Translations under genes and position numbers: made by a program
Notes under the pieces: model-generated
The model's database searches: none
The model's input: the letters and a program-made list of their open reading frames with translations, nothing else
What the model was told of the DNA's origin: nothing
Shown: positions 18,085 to 19,024 of the stretch, piece by piece
Numbering within the stretch: position 1 is the first letter of the stretch
Layout of the letters: each line of letters opens with the position of its first letter
Origin: Escherichia coli
Lineage (GTDB): Bacteria; Pseudomonadota; Gammaproteobacteria; Enterobacterales; Enterobacteriaceae
Strand: one strand, 5' to 3'
Length of the DNA stretch: 64,000 nucleotides
Assembly (NCBI RefSeq): GCF_003019035.1
Contig: NZ_CP027447.1

Positions 18085-19024
18085 CTGGCAGAAGTAATAG
18101 TTTAGCGTAAAAAAACAAATGAAAAATACTTTGCTTATAAACAAAATCATTCGAGGTGCATCAAGGTGGTAAGTTTTCAATCCCTTGGGAGCATAGCTAA
18201 CTATGTGACCAAGAGTTTGAAAACGCAGCCAACATAGAGGTAAGGTGTTGTCGGCCTACGGCCTCCGCATAAAGGACTTTATACCCGCCCCGTAGAGGAA
18301 GATCGGACACAATTAATGGAGCAATTAATGCCAGCGTGTGGAGCGGGTGCTATGATGATCGGGCGCAAAAACGCACGTCGGGAAATGTAAGTTAACAGTT
18401 AGCGCACCGTTATCTTACATTGAACGCCAGCAGCAATTCACTCATGCTTGGCTTACTCTTAGGCAGTATGTATACAATAAATCTTAACCCGGTGTCGCTT
18501 GAACAAAAGGTGGTCATTCTGGTGGTCTTGACAAACTCAATTTTTAGGTTTAGCTTACCAATCAGCCAGTTAATGGCTACGGCGATCCCAGTCAGAGGAG
18601 CCAAATTCTAAAAATTTCGCTTGTATCGTGCAATGCAACTCATCTACATTAAGCATTGATTCTTTAACGAAGAGCGGGTTTGTCATCTTAAGCGCCCTCG
18701 ACCTTTATGGTTGGGGTCGTTTTGTTATGGACGCCGTCTACAGCTTTCCTGTCGAGAGTGAGAAGTTACGGTCATTTTTGTGCCACATAACCTTCTGCTG
18801 GCAAAGAGTTCAGCACTATCTTCTCTACTCCGTCCCTATATTCGTCACCATTGCCCCCTCGATTATAAAACTTGAGTAATTCAGTAGTCTCCCCTCTTGC
18901 AACTCACACCCAAAACTGCCTAACGAAAAGTTATTAATTTTCAATCATATTGCTATCAGGATTTATATTTTTTCGCTGTGCTAGAAAGGGCGCATTTATG
19001 TTAGCTCGTTCAGGGAAGGTAAGC

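Follow-up and report, generated by a model that had tools for sequence, protein, structure and literature searches.

The sequence considered here lies in a 64,000-nucleotide stretch of E. coli DNA, all of which we refer to as the window, and the whole region is 100% identical to the chromosome of E. coli SCU-301 (NZ_CP051751.1). A small Rhs island of ~10.7 kb that is devoid of conjugation genes has inserted at the tRNA-Asn gene asnT (Table 1). The island contains int and a second integrase-domain gene, EFASI and C4 RNA matches (Rfam) and an HTH gene, followed by the Rhs gene with its toxin and immunity ORFs. At its right end is a 21-bp sequence, CCAGTCAGAGGAGCCAAATTC, that is identical at 21/21 positions to 7873-7893, which cover the 3' end of asnT and the next 5 bp. 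The first-pass annotation of this DNA had described a gap of ~500 bp between the immunity gene and this right-end repeat, and these boundaries are right, with the immunity stop at 18084 and the repeat at 18588-18608. We call this gap the tail. The last codons of the immunity gene form a terminator-like hairpin followed by a T-run, so transcription of rhs-CT-imm may stop short of the tail. Another terminator-like hairpin located 3' of attR, outside the tail, is probably the displaced asnT terminator.

Table 1. Coordinates of the island, the tail and the features within them (positions are those of the window).
Feature	Position	Strand	Remarks
asnT (tRNA-Asn)	7813-7888		island insertion site
Left-end features between asnT and int	7960-8021	+	stem-loop CCCGATGCG...CGCATCGGG; tandem GGTGGTCA/GGGGTCA pair just upstream of int (start 8050)
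int, P4-type tyrosine integrase gene	~8050-9312	+	RefSeq: tyrosine-type recombinase/integrase; adjoins asnT, same strand
Second integrase-domain gene	10628-11584
Rhs gene	13643-17422
Toxin ORF	17389-17778
Immunity ORF	17782-18084		stop at 18084
Terminator-like hairpin and T-run	18043-18067	+	AGCGCCGCGGGCGCT then TCTTTTGATT; last codons of immunity gene
Tail	18085-18587		no annotated gene; between immunity stop and right-end repeat
A-rich spacer, 51 bp	18085-18135		no convincing homolog
Partial ERIC/IRU (RU-1) repeat	18136-18245	+	first ~105/127 bp; right terminus (~22 bp) missing
Block B	18246-18290	+	apparent relic of a conserved leader hairpin and TTAAAGGnCTTTATGCCCGCCC motif
Block C	18304-18396	+	apparent relic of the leader's ops-containing block; degenerate ops-equivalent, then CGGGCGCAAAAACGCACGTCGGGAAA
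Imperfect inverted repeat	18385-18420		12/14, 8-bp spacer; ATGTAAGTTAACAG-TTAGCGCA-CCGTTATCTTACAT
Filler, 95 bp	18397-18491		no homolog found
Conserved 3' end of the asn-tRNA island family (putative attR arm)	18492-18587	+	homology to islands with unrelated cargo
Tandem GGTGGTC repeats	18509-18515, 18521-18527
TTGACA, 17-bp spacer, TAGCTT	18528-18533, 18551-18556		sigma-70-like, outward-facing (putative promoter)
Inverted repeat AGCCA-GTTAA-TGGCT	18564-18578
attR core, 21-bp direct repeat of asnT 3' end	18588-18608	+	CCAGTCAGAGGAGCCAAATTC
Terminator-like hairpin 3' of attR	18696-18716	+	outside the tail
yeeJ-like adhesin gene	start 18950

Analysis of the coding potential of the tail indicates that it does not contain a gene. 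RefSeq annotates nothing between 18085 and 18949. The longest ORFs that touch the tail have weak starts and encode 64 aa (minus strand, TTG), 63 aa (plus strand, TTG), 70 aa (minus strand) and 37 aa, with the 70-aa ORF lying mostly antisense to the immunity gene, and none of them matches Pfam at E<=1. The two longest also cross the conserved island end, where indels that distinguish one island from another would break any reading frame. The earlier statement that no convincing ORF is present is thus borne out, as is the statement that the tail is not AT-rich. Specifically, GC content is 0.40-0.48 in the tail and 0.34-0.37 in the toxin and immunity genes, with part of this rise attributable to the relic blocks at 18246-18396. 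Additionally, there is no tRNA or tmRNA in the tail, an Rfam search of the whole window at the gathering threshold reports nothing there, and relaxing this search to E<=10 over 17900-19000 gave chance-level matches only (such as STnc130, isrA and SAM-SAH). Rfam detects no JUMPstart element in the tail, and no site for the ops sequence GGCGGTAGnnTG occurs within 18085-18587 at one mismatch or fewer. Apart from the tRNA-derived repeat, no segment of the tail has a further copy in the 64-kb window. A 500-bp gap at an island boundary is statistically unremarkable; what rises above chance is the homology of four sub-segments of the tail to other sequences.

The segment from 18136 to 18245 is a partial copy of the ERIC/IRU element, a known small mobile repeat of 127 bp (PMC2229807, where Sharples & Lloyd 1990 and Hulton et al. 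1991 are reviewed). It is 74-75% identical to four intergenic copies, three from Salmonella (L017, L014 and L062) and one from Citrobacter (L015), which were recovered from plasmid and phage collections that include some mislabelled chromosomal records. The sites of these copies are the napH-napB gap (Salmonella L017), a position upstream of rluF (Citrobacter L015), the interval between fepB-like and entC-like ORFs (Salmonella) and a position beside a DUF3289 gene. The copies align to one another with a core that corresponds to the ERIC1R/ERIC2 primer region. Features that the window copy shares with the ERIC family are this level of identity, a central imperfect palindrome (18173-18224 is self-reverse-complementary) and the left terminus TATA.ACAAAATCATTC. 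When aligned with a full-length (127-bp) copy that has TA flanks, the window copy stops at ...CAACATAGAGG (18245) and the last ~22 bp, CAGCTTGAAAGATGAAGTGTATA, are absent. Consequently, the window copy is partial and, unlike a full ERIC, has neither the right inverted terminal repeat nor the TA duplication. Its location is inside a mobile island, beside a toxin-immunity module.

Immediately to the right are two short segments, blocks B and C, that are homologous to conserved parts of a non-coding leader found elsewhere in front of Rhs tips. Block B is 80-88% identical to loci from E. coli (L016), Salmonella (L050), Citrobacter (L052), Pectobacterium (L054) and Erwinia (L056), and the window carries both of its recognizable parts, the hairpin core and TTAAAGG.CTTTATGCCCGCCC. 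The 20-nt core, TGTCGGCCT-N1-2-CGGCCTCCGC, is invariant in these five genera and in the window even though the flanks have diverged. Perfect retention of this core in the window could mean that it is still in use, which counts against regarding this part of the tail as filler. Photorhabdus and Dickeya have other sequences at the block B position, where a hairpin is possible as judged by eye. Block C is 71-75% identical to L016 and L050 and carries an ops-like element, degenerate in the window, followed by CGGGC..AAAA.GCGCGTCGGG; Citrobacter, Pectobacterium and Erwinia have an exact ops, GGCGGTAGCGTG, at this position. The two blocks are separated by 13 bp in the window; the corresponding interval is ~250 bp in L016 (E. 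coli), ~430 bp in Salmonella and ~210-500 bp in the remaining loci of the comparison. Scanning species-representative genomes for CCTCCGCNTAAAGGACTTTAT gave 0 matches, and pattern scans of viral contigs with blocks B and C returned one real relative (L037) with the remaining matches being chance.

Tracing one E. coli match to strain 02B17CRGN002 placed the two blocks ~250 bp apart in non-coding sequence that runs from a gene for an XerC-like recombinase to an Rhs core fragment. The unit to which this sequence belongs sits inside an orphan array, where the whole unit is duplicated. Of 5,426 complete E. coli genomes, 57 carry this unit, usually as several copies, and homologs of the recombinase are common in Enterobacterales (3,846 at E<=1e-30). 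We also fetched contexts from Salmonella, Citrobacter sedlakii, Pectobacterium, Erwinia, Xenorhabdus, Photorhabdus and Dickeya which, together with E. coli, represent eight genera. The order of genes is constant in every one of these contexts, with SymE and an HTH gene on one strand and primase, recombinase, leader, toxin and immunity on the other. The primase is DnaG-like and ~900-990 aa long, the gap after the recombinase covers ~0.8-1.3 kb that is devoid of a convincing gene, and an Rhs tip precedes the toxin gene in those cassettes whose sequence was examined. Units measure ~6.5-7.2 kb and often form tandem arrays, within which the cassettes are located directly after an immunity gene. The leader has a GC content of 0.61-0.68, and a coding reading of this GC-rich region was ruled out since its conserved blocks occupy different relative frames across genera, which indicates that the leader is non-coding. 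Hairpins within the leader show compensatory changes, at 11 of the 19 pairs predicted in one region and at 4 of the 14 predicted in a long dif-like stem, and the leader matches no Rfam family. Each XerC leader in the loci examined has a single copy of the block B core pattern, located 350-600 bp downstream of XerC, with no second copy seen at the other end of the unit. Among viral contigs, a close relative of the XerC-like protein is found only in the contig of L037. Our literature searches found no published description of this cassette unit, the only relevant text being a general remark on XerC/D genes located beside polyimmunity loci (PMC3482391).

The window itself retains very little of such a unit. 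Comparing whole leaders with the window returns blocks B and C only, with the 5' covarying hairpins and the long dif-like stem absent, and tblastn with the XerC-like protein and the primase finds nothing. There is no Rhs tip after 18396, nor does the window have a recombinase, primase, SymE or HTH gene of the type that distinguishes the XerC/primase units. The integrase-domain protein encoded at 10628-11584 was considered as a relative of the cassette XerC and is not related to it. As blocks B and C stand alone, 13 bp apart, with a degenerate ops and no accompanying leader, recombinase, primase or Rhs tip, we read them as decayed. The segment 18246-18396 would thus be a compact relic of an XerC/primase Rhs-tip cassette leader, one that was presumably shortened by internal deletion. 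A broader proposal, for which we would give somewhat less than even chances, is that B and C are the footprint of a widespread family of SymE/HTH/primase/XerC/ops-leader/Rhs-tip units, that the toxin-immunity module was captured from or once carried one of these units, and that the leader, with its covarying hairpins, dif-like stem and invariant block B core, is either a large structured RNA of a new type or a site for recombination or replication of single-strand DNA that helps to mobilise Rhs toxin tips.

The tail shares with orphan Rhs-CT/immunity arrays (Poole et al. 2011; Koskiniemi et al. 2014, PMC3967940) a position directly 3' of an Rhs immunity gene, and it also resembles sequence located 5' of orphan-like Rhs tips in other genomes. 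Unlike those arrays, it keeps no Rhs tip, toxin or immunity coding sequence and only non-coding leader. The first-pass annotation had proposed that the tail might be an orphan CT/immunity remnant. As worded this lacks support, given that there is no coding similarity and that homology ends at the immunity stop, but the idea survives in altered form as a relic of the non-coding leader at 18246-18396. Absence of both conservation and similarity to any Rhs-associated sequence had been named as the outcome that would speak against any such link. This is not what was found, since blocks B and C match an Rhs-tip leader.

Two stretches of the tail gave no convincing homolog. The A-rich spacer that follows the immunity stop shows weak, A-rich similarity to the region left of the ERIC copy in the fepB-entC-type locus of Salmonella. 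The 95-bp segment at 18397-18491 was recovered only from SCU-301 in a search that covered 5,426 complete E. coli genomes, PLSDB plasmids, phage records and the fetched loci. An imperfect inverted repeat that overlaps the start of this segment (18385-18420) has a third copy at 17788-17805 on the opposite strand (16/18), and repeats of this kind are within chance for 11.7 kb. We also considered a dif-like reading of this repeat, as GTTAGCGCACC resembles the XerC arm of dif, and dropped it as the other arm is mismatched.

The last segment of the tail is widely distributed. Sequence homologous to 18492-18587 is found at 80-97% identity in at least 818 E. coli genomes, ~3,340 of the 5,426 complete E. 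coli genomes match the tail from 18492 or 18505 rightwards, and beyond E. coli this conserved end is found in Klebsiella, Salmonella and Rouxiella. Seven distinct islands with unrelated cargo align over 18505-18587 (~90 bp), as does a Klebsiella element (L041). Carriers include the pks island of Nissle 1917 (L004), a hyp/MFS island (L003), an integrase-pseudogene/IS1 remnant in strain A23 (L002), the other Rhs islands of G3/10 and APEC O78 (L019 and L020) and a Salmonella Rhs island (L031). The aligned ends have in common a tandem GGTGGTC pair, TTGACA and TAGCTT on either side of a spacer of variable sequence, and the inverted repeat AGCCA-GTTAA-TGGCT, past which they carry GGCGATC and then the tRNA-derived repeat. 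The suggestion that the tail might hold the recombination arm-site region therefore gains support for the last ~85-95 bp only (18492/18505-18587), which are conserved across asn-tRNA islands with unrelated cargo. GGTGGTC occurs at both ends of the island (18509, 18521 and 8001), and the pair at the right end, along with the similar pair just upstream of int, suggests that these may be arm-type binding sites for the integrase. Counting against this assignment, GGTGGTC is not enriched across the window (9 matches versus 5.9 expected).

The closest parallel is with ICEKp1, ICEEc1-HPI and pks, which share with this island integration at the 3' end of tRNA-Asn, an int gene that adjoins the tRNA and the same direct repeat. 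The stretch homologous to 18505-18580 contains the sites of two ICEKp1 primers, GATTGGTGGTCATTCTGGTG and GGTTTAGCTTACTTATTAGCCAGTTATTGG, and a primer from the supplement of the ICEKp1 paper, GAAAAATTGGTGGTCAAATCTGGG, resembles the left-end stretch 7960-8021. The homologous ~90 bp of the ICEKp1 3' end share the series GGTGGTCATTCTGGTGGTCTTGACA ... TAGCTTA ... AGCCAGTTA.TGGC ... GGCGATC with the window, although the Klebsiella end is only ~84-86% identical to it, and the terminator-like hairpin just past the right end of this island may correspond to the displaced tRNA terminator of ICEKp1. Unlike these elements, the island has ~10.7 kb of Rhs cargo and no conjugation genes. The ICEKp1 study (Liu et al., NAR 2026, PMC13023037) describes int as driven by the tRNA promoter when ICEKp1 is integrated at tRNA-Asn and, in the excised circle, by a sigma-70 promoter in the conserved 3' end as established by RT-PCR, 5'-RACE and -35/-10 mutants. 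The same study reports an equivalent 3'-end promoter in ICEEc1 from reporter assays, relocation of the tRNA terminator beyond the ICE 3' end upon integration, and stem-loops in the int 5' flank of ICEKp1.

Homology to the ICEKp1 3' end suggests that TTGACA-17-TAGCTT is the corresponding 3'-end promoter of this island. For example, the distance from TTGACA to TAGCTT is exactly 17 bp in five of the seven islands despite differences in the sequence of the spacer. Several observations count against this assignment: the other two islands have a spacer of 14 or 15 bp, TAGCTT is a weak -10 element (3/6), and the site is absent from the list produced by a simple promoter scan. Furthermore, the start site reported for ICEKp1 is 15 bp upstream of the "5' end" and, depending on how that end is defined, differs by a few bases from the position that TTGACA-17-TAGCTT predicts. 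We infer that 18492-18608 comprises attR together with a putative arm and the family's 3'-end promoter, such that the last ~95 bp of the tail would constitute the functional right end of an asn-tRNA island of the HPI/ICEKp1/pks type. Once the island is excised and circularised, the putative promoter would read across attP into int, while in the integrated state it would read outward into the displaced asnT terminator at 18696-18716.

The distribution of the tail among genomes bears on how its left portion may have been acquired. The tail as a whole occurs only in SCU-301 among 5,426 complete E. coli genomes, and several draft E. coli assemblies carry the identical island with the tail included. 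Among 126 related Rhs islands, those of G3/10 and APEC O78 have tails that are unrelated up to the conserved end. A 99.76% identical copy is present in L005, L010 and L013, where another island follows in tandem with an integrase at the same position (Arm-DNA-bind_3, Phage_int_M and Phage_integrase domains). When the window is compared with L013, there are 301 differences in the Rhs core up to 16822, and then identity over 16823-18614 with three exceptions, namely an 8-bp tandem duplication in the window, an indel within a run of A and the final base of the repeat. This abrupt change suggests that the toxin and immunity genes travelled as one with the tail and the last part of the core, and did so recently. 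It also means that near-identity of the tail is not evidence of constraint, since the adjacent genes are equally identical. The toxin-immunity-tail segment appears to behave as one exchangeable module, as judged from this one diverged comparison. Homologous recombination may have mediated the exchange through two crossovers, the left one within the Rhs core and the right one either at the conserved island end or past it.

We conclude that the tail is probably composed of two unlike parts, with ~400 bp on the left (18085-18491) being non-coding filler linked to the cargo and ~95 bp on the right being the functional end of an asn-tRNA island. The filler would consist of the truncated ERIC, the B/C relic and the two stretches that have no homolog, all travelling with the toxin-immunity module. 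An unlikely alternative to decay is that B and C are a retained docking or recombination site, or leader, for XerC/primase cassettes, which would make the tail a landing pad that recruits a new toxin cassette. The unchanging 20-nt core of block B amid diverged flanks is what one would expect of such a site, array cassettes do sit directly after an immunity gene, and tyrosine recombinases beside toxin/immunity arrays have been noted in general terms (PMC3482391). Against this, the core lies well inside each leader and is not repeated at the opposite end of the unit, the covarying hairpins and dif-like stem of the leader are missing from the window, and the shortened B-C interval (13 versus ~210-500 bp) together with the degenerate ops looks like decay. 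Moreover, no cassette is present at this position in any copy of the island that was examined.

It is quite improbable that the tail functions as a regulatory RNA, either as a 3' UTR in which the ERIC hairpin tunes stability of the rhs-CT-imm mRNA or as an independent small RNA. Such a role has a precedent in Yersinia, where co-transcribed ERIC copies alter the stability of neighbouring mRNAs (De Gregorio et al. 2005, as summarised in PMC2229807), and the tail has two internal promoter-like sites (18328-18356, an extended TG site, and 18392-18421) and is 99.8% conserved between the window and L005/L010/L013. The number of promoter-like matches in a simple scan is at the level of shuffled sequence (4 versus 3.1 expected), the conservation reflects the recent transfer that left adjacent genes just as identical, and the ERIC copy is truncated. 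On both strands, the predicted fold of 18236-18420 is no better than that of shuffles (z = +0.98 and -1.01), no Rfam match exceeds chance even at E<=10, and the terminator-like hairpin at the end of the immunity gene lies ahead of the tail. There is very little likelihood that a toxin/immunity coding module of the orphan Rhs type has decayed to give the tail. The immunity protein has homologs with 79-89% identity in Citrobacter, Salmonella and Intestinirhabdus, and at several Citrobacter and Salmonella loci an orphan Rhs fragment that brings a toxin and an immunity gene of its own begins 12-50 bp past the homologous immunity gene, which makes an orphan the usual neighbour at this position. The DNA homology of the toxin/immunity module with these three genera ends at the immunity stop codon, though, and the tail contains no Rhs core tip with a DPxGL region followed by CT and immunity ORFs. 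A tblastn search of six-frame tail peptides against 566 kb that included Rhs arrays found no Rhs core, CT or immunity match, its only matches being non-coding homologies at the DNA level, and blastn of the tail against the fetched Rhs arrays likewise found no similarity to an Rhs core tip, CT or immunity gene. The small ORFs are without a Pfam match, and ~60% of the tail is accounted for by the ERIC, B/C and island-end segments, which are all non-coding elsewhere. The mosaic of cargo-linked filler and conserved island end is thus the reading that we retain.

The finding regarding the tail is real but ordinary, as it describes a mosaic non-coding stretch that terminates in an island end of a known kind. 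It does fix the true right boundary and the anatomy of a small Rhs island at asnT, with no gene concealed in the tail. The last ~95 bp can be attributed to a conserved island end, and in ICEKp1 such an end was recently shown to carry an int promoter whose use depends on the state of the element. A module that is bounded by the Rhs core on one side and by the island end on the other would provide a simple route for swapping of toxins between island variants. The XerC/primase cassette family is a more interesting lead than the tail itself. If these units are mobile elements, then they would constitute a dedicated vehicle for spreading Rhs toxin/immunity cassettes, one that carries a large structured non-coding region.

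A XerC/primase Rhs-tip unit of ~6.5-7.2 kb recurs in tandem arrays at Rhs loci in 8 genera. The gene order within this unit is SymE, an HTH gene, a DnaG-like primase, a XerC-like recombinase, the leader, the Rhs tip with its toxin and finally the immunity gene. The leader that separates the recombinase from the Rhs tip is a GC-rich, non-coding stretch of ~1 kb containing covarying hairpins, a long dif-like stem, the invariant core of the conserved block B and an ops element. A search of this leader against Rfam returned zero matches, and a literature search found no description of the XerC/primase Rhs-tip unit.

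Within the window, an 8-bp tandem duplication, TGGGTTTG TGGGTTTG, coincides with the DPLGL tip that closes the Rhs core, at 17374-17389. The Rhs core (ending at 17422) and the toxin ORF (starting at 17389) are separate because this duplication shifts the reading frame. The diverged copy at L013 is without the duplication and encodes a single Rhs of 1375 aa. Most of the E. coli copies that were fetched also exhibit the core/toxin split.

Two RNA families have strong matches inside the island, with the EFASI RNA located immediately upstream of the second integrase-domain gene and the C4 antisense RNA upstream of the Rhs gene. Additionally, an AT-rich, repeat-bearing stretch occurs downstream of int at 9462-9876. 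It includes a 131-nt direct repeat whose copies are 72% identical, a 32-nt motif (AAAACC.ATCAAT...TATCAATAGGT) that occurs three times, and, at 9795-9830, an 18-nt palindrome without mismatches. The stretch looks like an iteron or operator cluster.

Features outside and inside the window (L016, cassette locus of E. coli 02B17CRGN002; L050-L061 include Salmonella, Citrobacter, Pectobacterium and Erwinia cassette loci)
Feature	Location	Strand	Remark
XerC/primase Rhs-tip unit	L016 1-3500; L018; L050-L061		outside window
DicF	window 2225-2276		
EFASI RNA	window 11569-11697	-	strong Rfam match, 97 bits
C4 antisense RNA	window 13177-13264	-	strong Rfam match, 69 bits
Three additional tRNA-Asn genes	window 33015, 34839, 37247		
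Cobalamin riboswitch	window 41541-41715		
STnc230	window 42782-42865		

The tail of the sister island in APEC O78 (L020) is unrelated to the one in the window. Directly 3' of its immunity gene, at 14917-14990, this tail too opens with a sequence, GTTCGAGTTGCGGGAAGGCGGCAAGC..., that resembles the left portion of an ERIC-like repeat.

In L005, L010 and L013, which carry the same Rhs island, a LysR gene comes after it, and then a second asn-type repeat with another integrase (6817-8770). Islands at these loci are in tandem at a single tRNA-Asn site. The further tRNA-Asn sites present in the window are occupied by islands in other strains, for example beside yeeO in G3/10.
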